Below are positions 36 to 54,370 of a DNA stretch of 64,000 bases, piece by piece (position 1 is the stretch's first letter; every line of letters starts with the position of its first letter). A program made the position numbers and the translations under genes. The notes beneath the pieces were generated by a model that was given only the letters and a program-made list of their open reading frames with translations, had not been told where the DNA came from and made no database searches. Origin of the DNA: a virus; IMG/VR virus record IMGVR_UViG_3300046457_000175, positions 32,001 to 96,000 of that record; one strand, written 5' to 3'.

Positions 36-150
36 CTGATTTCCTTTCGATTTGCAGGCTTCCGGCCTGCACGGTTTGCATTCATGCGCCGCACAGCGCA
101 TGGGTAGTCGGCCGGACCCGTAGATCCGGCTGTCTCGTTGACTGCGACGA

Positions 151-279
151 TCACATGTCGTGGATGCCGTAGTCGTTCTTGCCGCAGCGCGGGCAGGTCC
201 AGCCATACCCGCCCCAGCTGTCGTCGCCGATCCGCTTGTGATCAAAGACGATGCAGAGCAAACGCCTGAGCCACCTCAT
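151..279 (-). CDS. 42-aa Cys/His microprotein, DUF1660-like
   Basis: [17 protein letters not shown]...WTCPRCG; ATGA overlap with nrdJ stop. Confidence 0.6.
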
Positions 280-3200
280 GAGCAGCCCGTGGTCTCGCCG
301 CACGACTCGCACTTCAAGCAGGTGCCGTTCCGCACCATCGTGAAGCTCGCGCAGTTGCCACAGGAGTCACCCGTGTAGCCTGACTGCTTAGCAATGGTGC
401 GCCGGTCGGGTAGCGCCGCCTTGACCTGGGCGACGACTTTTTCAAGCACAGCGTCAGATGCATCAGCCACGTTGACCGTGATCTGATTGCTGACGTTGAC
501 AACCGGCACCTGGGCCACACCAACCGAGGTGTTCTCGCTCTCGTCGGGGGTGACGTGAGCCAGATCGTCGCGGCCGATATAGTTGATGCCGATGTCGCGC
601 CAGACGAAGTCGATGATCGACGATGCGCTCTTGATCCGCTCGTGCGACTGGACGAAGCCAGCCGGCTCGAACTTGAAGAACGTGAAGGCGTCGACATACT
701 CCTCGACCGGCACGCCATACTGGAGACCGATGCTGACGGCGATGGCATAGGCATTCATCATCGACCGGAAGGCTGCGCCCTCCTTGTGCATGTCGATGAA
801 GATCTCGCCGATGCGACCATCCTCGTACTCGCCCGTTCGCAGGTAGACCTTATGGCCCGCCACGATGGACTTCTGCGTGTAGCCGCGACGCTTGTCGGGC
901 ATCCGCTCACGCTTCCGAACCAGCTTCTCGACGACCTTGACGACGTCCTGCTTGACCTCGACGATGGTGGGCTCGTCAACTTCGTCCTGATCATCGATCA
1001 GAGCGGAGCTGAGCGGCTGGGAAAGCTTCGAGCCGTCGCGATAGATCGCGTTGGCCTTCAGCCCCAGCTTCCACGACATCATGTAAGCCTTGCTGATGTC
1101 CTCGACCTTGGCATCGTTCGGCATGTTGATCGTCTTGGAGATGGCACCCGAGATGAACGGCTGAACAGCAGCCATCATCTTGATGTGACCCTTCCAGTGG
1201 ATCGATCGCGTGCCGTCCTTGCCGCAGGGCGTGGCGCAATCGAAGACCGGATAGTCCTCGACTGCCAGATGCGGAGCACCTTCCAGCGTCATGGTCCCGC
1301 AAGCGTAGAGGTTGGCCTGCTCGATCTCCGGCTCGCTGAAGCCCAACTTCTCCCACTCCGCCAGGAAGCGGATGGTGAAGGTGGAGCGCACAGCTTGCTC
1401 CGTGATCGTGAGGCCAGCAGCCTTCGCCGCTTGCTCAAACGCGAGGGGCAACTGGCCGCGGCCCGTTGCGTAGTGGATGATCTCGTCAACCTCCTTAACG
1501 CTGTAGCCGAGAGCGTAGAGCGCTGCCGGAACCGACTGGTTGATGATCTTGAAGTAGCCGCCGCCGGCCAGCTTCTTGAACTTCACCAGAGCGTAATCCG
1601 GCTCGATGCCCGTCGTGTCGCAGTCCATCACCAGGCCGATCGTCCCGGTCGGAGCGATGACCGTCGTCTGGGCGTTGCGGAAACCGTGGTTTCCACCCAT
1701 CCGCAGGACTTCGTCCCAGATGTCGCTGGCCGTCTCCGCCAGACCGTCCTGATACTGGTGCTCCGTGTCCAGACCTTCCGGTCGGATGGAGAGGCCAGCA
1801 TAGGCGATCGAGCCGCTCTTCTCGGCAGCGGCGTGATGGTTGTGCATCACACGCATCATCGAAGCGGCGTTCTCCTCGTACTTGGGGAACGCGCCCAGAG
1901 CCTCAGCCATCTCAGCCGACGTGCGATAGGCCACGCCAGTCATGATTGCCGAGATCGCCCCGGCGAAGGCGCGAGCCTCGACCGAGTCGTAAGCGATGCC
2001 AGCCGACATCAGCATGCCACCGAGGTTCGCGAAACCGAGACCGGTGGTGCGATACTCGTAGGAGAGCAGAGCGATCTCCTTTGACGGGAACTGAGCCATC
2101 GTTATCGAGATGTCGAGCATGATCTGGATCAGGCGGCAGGCGTGGATGAAGCTGTCCTCGTCGAACACGAGCGGACCATTGCCGTGTCGGGAGGTGAACT
2201 TCATCAGGTTGGCCGAGGCCAGGTTGCACGCCGTGTCGTCGAGGAACATGTACTCCGAGCACGGGTTGGACGCGCGGATGCGACCGCCGGCCGGGCAGGT
2301 GTGCCAGTCGTTCATGGTCGTATTGAAGTGCAGACCGGGGTCAGCCGACTCCCAGGCAGCACGACAGATCTGATCCCAGAGGTCACGAGCCTTGATGGTC
2401 TTCATGACCTTGCCGTCTTTGCGCGCCTTCAGCTCCCAATCCATGCCGAGCTGAACGGCCTGGAGGAAGTCGTCGGTGACCGACACCGTGTTGTTCGAGT
2501 TCTGACCAGACACGGTCTCGTAGGCGGCCGACTGCCAATCGACGTCGAACTCCGGGAAGCTGAACTCCTCACCCTGCTCGGCGAGATCGATGACCCGCTT
2601 GATGTAGGACTCGGGCACAAAGGCGCCCTTGGCGGACCGGATGGCCTGCTTCAGGTGACCTTCGGACTTCGGGTCGGTCTTGGCGAGATAGACCTCGTGG
2701 AGTGCGCGCTTCGTGGCCTTGGAGCCAGCCACCAGAGCGGCGACCTTCTTTTCCTCCTCGACCTTCCAGCCGACGTATTCCTCGACATCCGGGTGATCGA
2801 CGTCGACTACGACCATCTTGGCCGCGCGCCGAGTCGTGCCGCCGGACTTGATCGCGCCGGCTGCCCGGTCGCCGATCTTGAGGAACGACATCATGCCTGA
2901 CGACGTGCCGCCGCCCGACAGTTTCTCGCCCTTGCCGCGCAGGTTCGAGAAGTTGGTGCCGGTGCCGGAGCCGTACTTGAACAGGCGCGCCTCACGGAGC
3001 CACAGGTCCATGATGCCACCGTCGCCGATCAGACTGTCGTCGATCGCCTGGATGAAGCAGGCGTGCGGCTGCGGACGCTCATAGGCGGAGGTCGAAGCCA
3101 ACACCTGCGGCAGCAGAGCTTCGTCGGTGTCGCTGACGTAGTAGTGACCCTGTGCCGGACCGTCGATGCCGTATGCCCAGTGAAGACCGGTGTTGAACCA

Positions 3201-3707
3201 CTGCGGAGAGTTGGGCGCGAACATCTGGGCGGCGAGCATGAAGCGCATCTCGTCGAAGAAGGCGAGAGCGTTCGACTCGGCGTCCTCATTGAGATCGGCG
3301 ATGGTGAGGTACTGGCTCATGGAGCCCGGCTTGAAGTAGCCGTTCTTCCAGCCCCAATAGGTCCAGCAGCCGGCGAGGCGGTCGAACACCTGCTTAGCTG
3401 AGGTCTCACTGGTCAGGTGCTGATCTGCCTCGGAGGTCGGGTAGGGCGCGCCGAAGCTGCGCTGCAGCCACGCCGGGACGCCGTCCTCGTCAGCCTTCAT
3501 CAGGTTCTTCGGAATGCCGGCCTTGCGGAAATACTTCTGCGCCAGCACGTCGACCGCAACCTGCGACCAGGACTCGGGGACTTCGATGCCTTCCAAGCGG
3601 AAAACGACCGAGCCGTCCGTGTTCTTGATCTCGCTGATGGCATTGCGCCAGCCAATCAGGCTGTACGGCGAGACGCCGGCCTTGGTGTATCGTCGGTCAA
3701 TTCTCAT
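276..3707 (-). CDS. nrdJ: class II (adenosylcobalamin-dependent) ribonucleotide reductase
   Basis: [23 protein letters not shown] catalytic motif, IAPTGTI, C-terminal TSCPD-like domain and Zn ribbon (CGNC..CESC). Confidence 0.97.
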
Positions 3708-3710
3708 TCG

Positions 3711-3995
3711 TCACTCGTCTTTCGGGAGGAAAACACAGTACGGCCAGTCAGCCGGGATCGGGTCGTACTCGGACGTCGGCCGTGAAGGCGGCGCCCAATC
3801 ATTGATGCGGTAGATGTTGCCGGTCGCGGTCCGGAAGACGTTCGGCTCGATCTCCTCCACCACCTTCGCGGTGTAGATGAACCAGCCGTCGCTATACTGG
3901 CTCTTGATGTCGCCCCAGATCGTGCCGCGCAGCGAGAAGCCGCCGCCCGGAATGGAGACGCGCTGGGCCTTCTTCAGCGTGCCGCGGACCTGCAT
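3711..3995 (-). CDS. hypothetical phage protein
   Basis: 94-aa ORF packed against nrdJ and upstream ORF. Confidence 0.7.
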   Translation of the reverse strand: MQVRGTLKKAQRVSIPGGGFSLRGTIWGDIKSQYSDGWFIYTAKVVEEIEPNVFRTATGNIYRINDWAPPSRPTSEYDPIPADWPYCVFLPKDE

Positions 3996-53120: not shown

Positions 53121-53467
53121 ATGTGGTCTCCCAGGTTACGCTTGAACTCGCGCAGGAAGGCGTTCGCCTCGTTGAGATCGGCCGGCAGGTCGGTCGCCCA
53201 CGACACCGAGACTCGAGCGATCGGCGTCGGGATCATGCGGAAGAGCCAGAGGAACTGGCGGCGGCTCTGGAACGGACGGAAGGTCCGGCCACGGATCTTG
53301 CGCTGCTCACCGGGGAGGGGATGTCGCCACTGGCGGCTGCTGAGTTGGGCGCCGAAGCCACCGATCCAGGTGTAGAGCCGGCCGCTCAGCCAGTAGAACC
53401 GGTCGTCGAAGTAGGGCGACGCGAGTCCGTGGCCGTTGCCGAAGATCAGATGGTCGAGGAAAAGCAT
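53117..53467 (-). CDS. hypothetical Trp/Arg-rich protein
   Basis: first ORF left of the box at 53478. Confidence 0.6.
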   Translation of the reverse strand: MLFLDHLIFGNGHGLASPYFDDRFYWLSGRLYTWIGGFGAQLSSRQWRHPLPGEQRKIRGRTFRPFQSRRQFLWLFRMIPTPIARVSVSWATDLPADLNEANAFLREFKRNLGDHM

Positions 53468-53560
53468 CCGGCTTGACTAGCACGAATGCAAATGCGATGC
53501 AAATATTCGCGGGGCCGGCGGGCGCTTCGCGCCAGAGTCATAACCAAACCGCCCGCGGCG

Positions 53561-53833
53561 TCACCCGTCGCGGAGGTTCATCGCTTTGTAGGCCTTGAGC
53601 AGCTGGTCCGGAGGCGTCCTGGCTTTCAGGGCTTCCCAGGCCGTCTTGAAGTCGACCTTCGCCTGGTCGAGGCTGCCGGCCGTGCCGATGGGGAGACCTC
53701 CGGTGAGGTGGACGATGACGTTCCAGATCCAGATCCCGGGCGTGCGCTCGCTAGCGTATCTGATCCGGCCGACCATCTGCTTGTCGTCGAGCACGGAATA
53801 GTCGCGGCGTCCGATCGGTCGCAGGCTGAGCAC
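53561..53833 (-). CDS. Bradyrhizobium-type small hypothetical protein
   Basis: GRIRYASERTPGIWIWNV...AKVDFKTAW, a pattern I associate with Bradyrhizobiaceae hypotheticals (recall, not searched). Confidence 0.65.
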   Translation of the reverse strand: MLSLRPIGRRDYSVLDDKQMVGRIRYASERTPGIWIWNVIVHLTGGLPIGTAGSLDQAKVDFKTAWEALKARTPPDQLLKAYKAMNLRDG

Positions 53834-53850
53834 GAAATCGGCCTCGTGAG

Positions 53851-53974
53851 GGGGGTGTCAACCAGGATGACAGGGGGGGTGTAATCCTGGTTGACAGGGG
53901 TGTCATCCGAGTTGACAGGGGTGTCATCCGAGTTGACACCTTAAACCACCACTATAACCACCACTTGAACCACC
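53851..53974. repeat. second iteron array homologous to the one in the initiator gene
   Basis: four GTGTCA-N7-TGACA(G/C) units at 53855, 53879, 53900, 53921 followed by CTTAAACCACCACTATAACCACCACTTGAACC. Confidence 0.85.
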
Positions 53975-54370
53975 AACTCTTAGACTCTCGTCCCTTTTCG
54001 GGCCGAGGCGCTGGCTTTTGGCTTCGGCCGCAGGTTCCGGTCAGGAACTCCAGCCGGCAAGTTTCCACAGTTCGGGCGGAAAAGGTGCCCAGGTGTTGAA
54101 ACCGGGAACCCATTTGCATTTTTGCAGGGAACAACCAGAGAGGGGTTGACAGAACGGGGGTACCTACTGTAGGACTTGCTGTAGCGTTAGCATTCGTGCA
54201 AACGTAACCAAGCCCCCAGGATGCGGCCCGGACAATCAGCCGGGACATTGGGCGGTGCCCGGACCCACTAACCCCATGCTGCGACCCCCGCCTCAGGCGG
54301 CGGCGCCCGGCCAGGCGATAGGAGTTCGGCGTGTCCAGGGGCTTGCTTGAATGCAAACGGAGGAACGCGC

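Follow-up and report, generated by a model that had tools for sequence, protein, structure and literature searches.

A stretch of 64,000 nt (the window) from the 119-kb, myovirus-type genome of a phage of Bradyrhizobium, an alphaproteobacterium, carries the short box TTGC-N6-GCAA again and again between its genes, which raises the question of what the box does and what reads it. With moderate confidence, we propose that a repressor encoded by the phage itself, most likely the cI/LexA-like protein of 18341-19054, uses the box as its DNA operator, and that the copies of the box form a "stoperator"-like array that keeps the prophage silent.

Number, placement and architecture of the box

TTGC-N6-GCAA matches the window 16 times against an expected 0.96, and none of 100 shuffled sequences reached 16, so that the comparison with shuffled sequence to which the original prediction had pointed came out clearly in favour of enrichment. 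At up to two mismatches, TTGCATTCAAGCAA occurs 18 times where 0.26 would be expected, and the predicted number of about 22 copies is obtained once degenerate copies are counted (16-mer, up to 3 mismatches). The array described between 76 and 54356 was recovered, except that its first site, at 76, is a poor match, differing from the 14-mer at 3 positions. The whole phage genome (G000; 119,289 bp) contains 26 boxes at up to two mismatches, 24 of them entirely intergenic, compared with 17-30 in each of seven relatives; these sites span the entire 119 kb and are not confined to control regions beside the repressor gene. Among the eight related genomes, only 2 of 88 full boxes fall within coding DNA.

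The placement of the box is equally regular. Full boxes located between same-direction genes point with transcription in 78 cases and against it in none (8 genomes, p ~7e-24), as had been predicted. At most sites in the phage the box ends 6-43 nt ahead of a start codon. Box-to-start distances peak sharply at 10-14 nt (50 of 162), and at 47 sites a Shine-Dalgarno-like tetramer starts 1-3 nt past the box, in agreement with the proposed proximity to ribosome-binding sites. Enriched, oriented and intergenic across the genome and its relatives, the box thus behaves as the signal of a phage-wide regulon.

A host signal was considered and rejected, since the Bradyrhizobium genomes lack the box; the earlier failure to match it to a known host site is thereby borne out. 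In five host-clade genomes (36 Mb), the 14-mer at up to one mismatch has a single match versus four for the control, and even the 12-nt core reaches only ~2 per Mb in the host, whereas the phage carries the stricter 14-mer at ~200 per Mb. The lifestyle appears to be temperate: relatives are classed as proviruses, and homologs lie on Bradyrhizobium contigs of 7.7-9.5 Mb.

Taken together with its flanking bases, the box forms an imperfect inverted repeat of 16 bp, TTTGC(A/T)T-GA-ATGCAAA. Symmetry extends to 6 of 7 arm positions in the consensus and to all 7 in the A5 variant; perfectly palindromic versions of 14 and 20 bp occur in two relatives (G016 and G019). Phased outer half-sites lie ~12 bp out on both sides: of 186 sites, 54 have a TGC 12 bp upstream, where 2.6 would be expected, and 31 have a GCAA 12-13 bp downstream, where 1.3 would be expected. 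Such an inverted repeat, often with further half-sites spaced one helical turn outwards, is compatible with a protein that has two-fold symmetry and oligomerises; we infer that the candidate repressor binds the box, and that it does so as a dimer. Even the most symmetric variants, their central GA included, keep this strict orientation, which a simple symmetric dimer would not predict; the operator reading would need an additional, putative polar function, and this counts against it. Phages with only ~75% nucleotide identity between them nonetheless carry one and the same box. Immunity specificities usually diverge between phages, and this constancy consequently also counts against an operator reading.

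Promoters, operons and the sites in the window

The features of the window are collected in Table 1. A promoter of the form TTGnnn-N16-19-TAnnnn overlaps 26 of 186 boxes versus 3 of 390 control windows, and 22 of the 26 belong to three orthologous families (A, B and C), each present in 7-8 of 8 genomes. Both promoter overlaps noted earlier hold: the box at 5062 fills the spacer between TTGACC and TAGGAA, and the box at 17380 covers the -10 of a TTGACA-N17 promoter. The register of the box differs among the three conserved sigma70-type promoters, where it lies in the spacer, over the -10 and start, or just after the -10; a promoter of fixed geometry was rejected on these grounds. Family C has a leaderless-type layout, with an ATG at 5048, 6 nt past the -10. 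Family A is present in 7 of 8 genomes, the box of G002 being the variant TAGCTTGAATTCAA there, and the box overlapping this promoter is a putative autoregulatory operator. Family B is a second copy of the module at 54146..54175 and lies just outside the window (window-equivalent 73230). A TTGACT-N18-TAATGT promoter that faces the gene of the replication initiator in G019 likewise has its spacer filled by a box, here a palindromic one.

Table 1. Boxes, promoters and associated genes in the window
Feature	Position	Strand	Context
Box (16-mer, 1 mismatch)	4355..4370	-	18 nt before start of 3996-4337, ribonucleotide reductase operon head; orthologous site in 8 genomes
Promoter family C	5055..5083	-	-35 TTGACC (5083-5078), -10 TAGGAA (5060-5055)
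Box filling 17-bp spacer of promoter family C	5061..5076	-	Conserved in 8/8 genomes
Box (2 mismatches)	9972..9987	-	4 nt past upstream gene end, 11 nt before start of 8987-9961
Degenerate box (3 mismatches)	13882..13897	-	
Box	14716..14731	-	Upstream of gene 14025-14681
Promoter family A, RuvC-like/repressor operon	17354..17382	+	-35 TTGACA (17354-17359), N17, -10 TATTTG (17377-17382)
Box, weaker variant TTGCACGAATGCAA	17379..17394	+	Overlaps -10 and start site of promoter A
RuvC-like Holliday junction resolvase gene	17414..18064	+	First gene of repressor operon; phrog_159, E=1e-28
Two degenerate boxes (3 mismatches each)	18150-18165, 18186-18201	-	Upstream of repressor gene, pointing with leftward arm
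Candidate reader, cI/LexA-like repressor	18341..19054	+	N-terminal Cro/C1 HTH, C-terminal beta domain
Box (2 mismatches)	21929..21944	-	14 nt before start of 21157-21915
Perfect 16-mer box	23933..23948	-	Upstream of helicase gene 22304-23890
GC-centred palindromic box TTGCATGCATGCAA	24392..24407	.	17 nt before start of 23956-24375
Proximal box ATGCTTGAATGCAA	32042..32057	-	11 nt before start of 30568-32031
Distal box	32129..32144	-	Upstream region of 30568-32031; 87 nt from proximal box, conserved hairpin between
Box	35460..35475	-	89 nt upstream of 34454-35371
Tandem pair	35976..36014	+	TTTGCAGGAACTGCAA (N7 spacing, 35976-35991) and box (35999-36014)
Box	38723..38738	-	26 nt before start of 38458-38697
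Box TTGCTTGAAGGCAA	43257..43272	-	
Box	47135..47150	-	27 nt before start of 46926-47108
Box, A5 variant, fully symmetric arms	48389..48404	-	Overlaps stop of 48396-48623
Sigma70-type promoter (rightward)	54146..54175	+	TTGACA 54146-54151, N18, TAGGAC 54170-54175
Degenerate leftward box	54187..54202	-	Starts 12 nt past -10 of 54146..54175 promoter
Box	54342..54357	+	14 nt before first gene of rightward arm

Several sites can be followed in related phages. Gene 14025-14681 is the positional counterpart of a BDU-MI-1 gene annotated as a single-stranded DNA-binding protein. In most relatives the box of the helicase gene has a second palindrome (TTTGCA-N5-TGCAAA) 8-9 bp upstream, and the tandem pair, 22 nt ahead of the lone rightward gene 36036-36473, keeps its arms while its centre varies. 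Canonical promoters are rare in the phage, and only 8 terminator-like sites were found in its genome, of which the 72-kb leftward arm contains one. Because both are few, most boxes lie inside long operons, where internal repressor sites make sense.

The candidate reader and the competing explanations

The HTH protein encoded at 18341-19054, which the original prediction had listed as an XRE/S24-like candidate, emerges as the best candidate reader. It is present in all 10 relatives (47-69% identity), and its recognition helix, LAPST(I/V)LR(L/M/I)LN, is invariant among them. It matches Pfam HTH_26 at 22.1 bits (cut-off 22) and PHROGs 1373 and 8 ("transcription regulation"). By sequence it has no PDB match; the top Foldseek matches of its model are lambda cI, LexA and 186 CI (3bdn, 1jhf, 2fjr), and its HTH portion can be aligned with HipB and C.Esp1396I. 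For a C-terminal S24 (LexA-like) domain with a Ser-Lys dyad there are weak whole-chain matches to 3bdn, 1jhf and 3k2z (E 2.6e-3 to 7e-3; model pLDDT 69), and two homologs carry a precomputed PF00717. The candidate nucleophile Ser (PDNS) gives way to T or A in three relatives (G003, G002 and G019). The gene and its neighbours are on opposite strands, and the promoter of its operon contains a weaker box that is conserved. The GAATTCAAA box variants occur 7 times in G002 and 14 times in G019, and are missing from seven other genomes; HTH substitutions co-occur with such lineage-specific variants, of which there are only three lineages. Only 5 protein columns separate G002 and G019 from the other genomes, 4 of them in the HTH domain, including L49 of the recognition helix.

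The array might be read by another phage protein, such as a lytic-phase regulator (a Cro-like HTH protein, for example) or an unannotated protein. The evidence from the DNA sites is the same for such a reader, several further HTH proteins are encoded nearby, and in lambda-type switches the Cro-type protein and the repressor share operators. We nevertheless judge this quite unlikely, as the Cro-like, Myb-like and HTH_36 proteins each fail on presence or conservation. The first two had been proposed as readers and are now disfavoured: the Cro-like protein, whose recognition helix varies, has no tblastn match in G005 despite 30 boxes, and the Myb-like protein has none in G019 despite 15 core copies. 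The HTH_36 protein is also disfavoured, being the replication initiator and diverging to 24% identity. Among the candidates, only the cI-like protein is present throughout, keeps its recognition helix invariant and covaries with the box variants.

Of the three mechanisms originally offered, an operator fits best, given the dyad symmetry, the outer half-sites and the promoter overlap. A MotA-box-like activator site finds no support, given the modal start codon 10-14 nt past the box, which leaves no room for a -10 and start site downstream, where no -10 is conserved; the layout of T4 middle promoters, with the box near -30, the -10 ~12 bp downstream and the start beyond, is not found here. Action at the RNA level, by a translational regulator binding at the Shine-Dalgarno sequence or through a UUGC/GCAA hairpin in the 5'-UTR, would agree with the constant location on the transcribed strand, the sharp 10-14 nt mode and the Shine-Dalgarno sequence abutting the box. 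It is, however, highly improbable: 57 one-sided changes in the 4-bp stem include no compensated one, inverted half-sites and palindromes favour recognition of duplex DNA, and over half of the sites lie 15-130 nt from the start codon. Moreover, the RNA would lack the box at promoter families A and C, because transcription would start inside or after it.

The box may also be viewed as a phage-specific promoter class, at which the host RNA polymerase, redirected by a putative phage factor, would start 1-3 nt past the box (position ~17) and produce short leaders beginning at the Shine-Dalgarno sequence; the factor would be needed because the motif is absent from the host. The absolute co-orientation would follow, ~26 copies is a typical number for such a class, position 17 is preferentially a purine, and a box precedes every lone operon on the opposite strand (17380, 36000) and also follows immediately on a conserved hairpin ahead of the capsid gene. 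The TGC at -10 is spaced to TTGC as are the -24/-12 elements of sigma54, but a sigma54 promoter was rejected, since the -24 GG is replaced by GC and the -24 position is C, T or A, with G in only 9 of 186 sites. We consider a promoter class unlikely, since dyad symmetry and symmetric outer half-sites are foreign to sigma-type promoters, the extra inverted half-sites would imply antisense promoters, and the box lies within or over canonical promoters in three registers. Furthermore, a search of the phage for sigma70 region 2 gave no match, the capsid gene of three relatives keeps its terminator and leader without a box, and many internal promoters would be unneeded because the arms are almost devoid of terminators. 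A dual use, with the box as operator of the cI-like repressor in the lysogen and as a phage-specific promoter core starting at about position 17 in lytic growth, again through a host polymerase redirected by a putative phage factor, would explain the combination of dyad symmetry with absolute polarity, including the fixed direction of the central GA and the way in which the box runs directly into the Shine-Dalgarno sequence; we hold it to be distinctly unlikely.

Under the preferred reading, an operator array of the cI-like repressor, two modes of action may be envisaged. The few boxes that overlap strong sigma70-type promoters (the repressor operon's own, one in the structural arm and the one at 5062) would allow the repressor to block initiation in the classical manner. 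The other ~20 copies per genome occupy promoter-less junctions within very long operons, all pointing with transcription, and may there act as polar roadblocks that stop or damp the elongating RNA polymerase in the lysogen, by analogy with the stoperators of mycobacteriophage L5.

Comparison with known repressor systems

Repressors of the lambda cI, 434 and LexA type combine an N-terminal HTH with a C-terminal beta domain and bind inverted-repeat operators of 14-17 bp; classical lambdoid repressors use two operator clusters beside the repressor gene. The candidate likewise has an N-terminal Cro/C1-type HTH and a C-terminal beta domain, the inverted repeats lie over a -35, -10 or start, including the repressor's own promoter, and adjacent sites suggest cooperativity. 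Here, however, the sites are genome-wide and strictly oriented, and the catalytic Ser varies. Oriented, asymmetric 22-bp repeats, predominantly intergenic and in 16-20 copies, have been described in coliphage T1 and Citrobacter phage Stevie (PMC4319613). They resemble the present box in pointing with transcription in phages of Gram-negative hosts, but those phages are lytic, and neither a function nor a reader has been assigned to their repeats, which share no sequence similarity with the box.

In the SPbeta prophage, too, a single conserved word recurs across a large prophage, in many of its intergenic or promoter regions. Its 15-bp SPBRE motif, found at ~10 promoter regions, was predicted in silico years before its repressor was found, and is bound by the master repressor MrpR/YopR, a protein of tyrosine-recombinase fold that maintains lysogeny (PMC10516654). 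The present phage differs in its HTH candidate and in its ~26 sites, most of them away from recognisable promoters. In Cluster A mycobacteriophages, an asymmetric 13-mer is bound by a monomeric repressor (L5 gp71, the TipsytheTRex repressor) with an HTH and a unique "Stoperator" domain (PMC9283540, PMC6550527). These temperate phages with long operons also have more than 20 dispersed sites, some at promoters and most in short intergenic gaps, co-oriented with transcription. In contrast, the present site is an inverted repeat of 16 bp flanked by symmetric outer half-sites, the fold of the candidate repressor resembles cI/LexA rather than gp71, and the phage has an alphaproteobacterial host and a 119-kb myovirus-type genome; the polar block of elongation is proposed here by analogy. 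By this comparison, the array most likely represents a form of genome-wide repressor-site control already known from a few other phage groups, here with an unrelated repressor, and if this is true, one phage repressor can silence a whole prophage.

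The phage family and its genome layout

The phage itself (G000) is a 119,289-bp IMG/VR virus record, 98% complete and of ~61% GC; the window spans its positions 32001-96000. Its nearest named relative is the 121-kb Bradyrhizobium phage BDU-MI-1, whose annotation includes tail sheath, baseplate, rIIA, class II ribonucleotide reductase and integrase. Several relatives are classified as proviruses from isolate genomes, and homologs of the candidate repressor (a cI/LexA-like HTH protein) are located on Bradyrhizobium contigs of 7.7-9.5 Mb; together with the kinship to BDU-MI-1, these observations place G000 in a temperate phage family of Bradyrhizobium. 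Seven assembled relatives can be aligned to some 42-62% of the length of G000, at ~75% nucleotide identity. A search via rIIA among GTDB representative genomes found no prophage relatives, and the sequencing runs listed as containing the phage are DNA metagenomes from rhizosphere and roots, with no RNA run among them.

According to our own rough gene calls, the genome consists of a leftward and a rightward arm (see the table). Terminator-like sites number eight in all, only one of them in the 72-kb leftward arm, and this scarcity implies that the arms are very long operons, with most boxes inside them at gene junctions. The leftward arm also contains a promoter-proximal, hypervariable early region; its small genes have hardly any orthologs, or none, in the seven relatives, and boxes there are sparse and more degenerate. 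Of two tRNA genes detected by ARAGORN, only tRNA-Gly(TCC) passes the Rfam tRNA threshold. A lone rightward gene within the leftward arm is conserved in 10/10 genomes, has tandem boxes upstream and gave no Pfam or PHROG match; it may be lysogeny-expressed or immunity-related.

Distribution and anatomy of the box

The original prediction described a box that recurs genome-wide, oriented with transcription and set next to ribosome-binding sites, and the counts agree in all three respects. The window has 16 matches to TTGC-N6-GCAA, compared to 0.96 expected, and 18 to the full word with up to two mismatches (0.26 expected). Across the eight related genomes, 78 full boxes between genes of the same direction are co-oriented and none is in the opposite orientation, and just two of 88 full boxes fall in coding DNA. 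The distance from box to start codon peaks at 10-14 nt (50/162), and at 47 sites an SD-like tetramer starts 1-3 nt past the box. The whole of G000 carries 26 sites, 24 of them wholly intergenic, and the seven relatives carry 17-30 each (n = 186 sites in all). Comparison of orthologous positions shows the box almost unchanged amid diverged intergenic DNA. More distant relatives (capsid identity 70-83%) retain 7-16 core copies; the core is kept by all relatives, leaving no box-minus genome for gene-content profiling.

With its flanks, the box is a 16-bp imperfect inverted repeat, TTTGC(A/T)T-GA-ATGCAAA, whose consensus is symmetric at six of seven arm positions, and at all seven in the 28% of sites with A at position 5. 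The left arm is looser than the right, which hardly varies. Outer half-sites show symmetric phasing: 54 of the 186 sites have TGC 12 bp upstream of the left arm (2.6 expected), and 31 have GCAA 12-13 bp downstream of the right (1.3 expected). Some loci bear tandem or inverted extra copies (e.g., 35976-36014), and in most relatives TTTGCA-N5-TGCAAA is conserved 8-9 bp upstream of the helicase-gene box. The centre is predominantly GC in one relative, G016, and the A5 form of this GC-centred box is a perfect 14-bp palindrome, while two others, G002 and G019, contain a mixture of GAATGCAAA and GAATTCAAA. G019 further carries a pair of perfect 20-bp palindromes based on GCTTGAATTCAAGC; the left part of the box forms their symmetric arm, with the register shifted by 2 bp, and this suggests that the sites are recognised in a second way or shared with a second protein.

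Promoters, candidate repressor and rival readings

Canonical promoters of the form TTGnnn-N16-19-TAnnnn are rare in these genomes, with 3 in 390 box-free control windows, but 26 of the 186 boxes overlap one. Twenty-two of the 26 fall in three orthologous families (A, B and C), present in 7, 7 and 8 of eight genomes, and the box register differs in each. Given the position of its -10, transcription from family A would start inside the box. The spacer-filling box originally noticed at 5062 proved to be a regular feature of family C. In this latter family the -10 is only 6 nt before the ATG, and in G002 no SD-like sequence lies between them, which suggests that the mRNA of gene 4557-5048 is leaderless. 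A palindromic box in G019 fills the spacer of a promoter facing the replication initiator gene.

Coordinates of features (window positions unless stated otherwise)
Feature	Position	Description
Promoter family A	17354-17382	Repressor operon; -10 ends at box position 3
Promoter family B	window-equivalent 73230-73275	Structural arm; -10 ends 1 nt before box
Promoter family C	5055-5083 (with ATG region, 5046-5083, -)	17-bp spacer exactly filled by box
Promoter module, copy within window	54138-54180	Second copy of family B module (54146), at head of rightward arm; degenerate reverse-oriented box follows
Promoter module, copy outside window	G000 genome 105222-105262 (window-equivalent 73222-73262)	Precedes capsid module
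Candidate repressor gene	18341-19054 (+)	
Lone rightward gene	36036-36473 (+)	145 aa
Hypervariable early region	44000-53800	
tRNA-Ser(AGA)-like gene	47201-47296 (-)	96 nt
tRNA-Gly(TCC) gene	56551-56626 (+)	
Hairpin between two boxes	32058-32128	No T-run; upstream of gene 30568-32031
Capsid-upstream hairpin	G000 genome 106981-107002 (L126:10981-11002)	GC-rich; 2 nt before capsid-gene box
20-bp palindromes of G019	L297:3016-3035; L298:12656-12675	
Leftward arm	G000 genome 14,047 to 85,833	Rough gene calls
Rightward arm	G000 genome 86,371, across record ends, to 13,865	Rough gene calls

The ~40-bp promoter module, GAGAGGGG-TTGACA-GAAnGGGGGTACCT..., exists in two copies, and the one before the capsid module is conserved in 8/8 genomes with a lone TTTGCAT half-site ~36 nt upstream of the -35. 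The hairpin just upstream of the capsid gene is maintained among relatives by compensatory changes; at its position three relatives (L281, L282 and L286) have a canonical terminator and no box, with the downstream leader (GGCCAGTC...AAGAGTGAGAAATG) retained. The hairpin at 32058-32128 is kept in BDU-MI-1, G003 and G005 with differing stem sequences, and may be a 5'-UTR structure.

The candidate repressor was found in 10/10 genomes at 47-69% identity, and its recognition helix, LAPST(I/V)LR(L/M/I)LN, is essentially invariant among them. The protein matches Pfam HTH_26 at the cut-off as well as PHROG "transcription regulation" families. It has ~170 homologs, and two homologs have Peptidase_S24 matches. 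The best whole-chain matches of its AlphaFold model (pLDDT 69) are lambda cI, LexA and 186 CI, with weak E-values of at least 2.6e-3; a PDB sequence search returned no match at E <= 1, and homodimer prediction scored 0.38 against a mark of 0.42, a value that weighs on neither side. The gene is encoded on the other strand from its neighbours, in one transcription unit with a RuvC-like resolvase; the promoter of this operon bears a weaker form of the box that is conserved, in keeping with autoregulation. Seven genomes never use GAATTCAAA and two do, and the protein alignment tells these groups apart in only five columns, four of them within the HTH domain: I18V, L49M/I (in the recognition helix), P56Q/K and T60S/A. 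This covariation is not simple shared ancestry, since the N-domain of G002 is no closer to that of G019 than to the others.

On the strength of these sequence comparisons we favour, with moderate confidence, the reading that the boxes form a dispersed operator array for this repressor. At promoter families A-C the protein would block initiation, and elsewhere it may damp elongation in the lysogen, by analogy with the stoperators (dispersed repressor sites) of mycobacteriophage L5. The operator model leaves unexplained that the polarity of a nearly symmetric box is absolute, central GA included, and that box specificity is identical across diverged phages. An array read by a different protein appears quite unlikely. 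Among the readers named in the original prediction, the XRE-S24 protein at 18341 is the best candidate, with its presence throughout and its essentially invariant helix, and the other two are disfavoured: the Cro-like protein has no tblastn hit in G005, nor the Myb-like protein in G019. Of the further candidates, the one with an HTH_36 domain is the replication initiator and ORF 17414-18064 the resolvase.

We consider it unlikely that the box is a phage-specific promoter, because three different registers at three promoters are operator behaviour and incompatible with a fixed-geometry promoter element. A six-frame search of the phage for sigma70 region 2 (PF04542) found none; that for a single-subunit RNAP (PF00940) was uninformative, its control being without a match anywhere. 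A sigma54 promoter was rejected, as the spacing fits but GC replaces the -24 GG, and the suggested MotA-box-like activator site, or one of class II CRP/FNR type, does not hold with start codons so close behind the box. Terminator-then-promoter logic fared no better: GC hairpins lie directly upstream in only 8% of sites versus 4.5% of controls, at a small number of orthologous loci, the capsid site among them. A host regulator or sigma site was rejected too, since genomes of Bradyrhizobium, Rhodopseudomonas and Mesorhizobium lack the box, in line with the earlier statement that it does not match the LexA(alpha), CtrA, FNR/FixK or sigma54 sites: five host-clade genomes (36 Mb) gave one match to the 14-mer with at most one mismatch, versus four for the reversed control. 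In these genomes the density of the 12-nt core is ~2 per Mb, roughly 3x control, compared to ~200 per Mb for the stricter 14-mer in the phage. Action at the RNA level is very improbable; the proposed UUGC/GCAA hairpin is contradicted by 57 one-sided stem changes with none compensated, and cmscan against Rfam returned a tRNA only, with no family for the box.

Implications and comparison with known systems

If the operator reading is true, genome-wide silencing through repressor sites would not be confined to actinobacterial and Bacillus phages but would also operate in large temperate phages of Bradyrhizobium, a nitrogen-fixing genus. There it would have arisen independently, with a lambda-cI-like dimeric repressor acting on a site that is palindromic yet strictly oriented. 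This would raise the testable question of how polarity arises from a near-symmetric operator. One immunity specificity would be predicted for the entire prophage family, which bears on superinfection exclusion among rhizobial strains and on the use of the phages, or of the repressor-operator pair, as genetic tools. The box positions would also show directly where transcription units are controlled in a phage family with almost no annotation.

A literature search on TTGC-N6-GCAA or BDU-MI-1 found nothing relevant. In L5, the sites are found both at promoters and in the short gaps between genes, run in the direction of transcription and cease to function on reversal (PMC9283540). The present system would resemble the Cluster A stoperator network and SPBRE/MrpR, the repeat and master repressor of SPbeta (PMC10516654), in its mode of working, but membership tests placed it outside both, because its site is an inverted repeat and its candidate repressor has a cI/LexA-like fold. 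Among phages with Gram-negative hosts, T1 and Stevie offer a parallel in their oriented repeats, itself unexplained (PMC4319613). From classical lambdoid systems, the phage differs in its ~26 dispersed, oriented sites.
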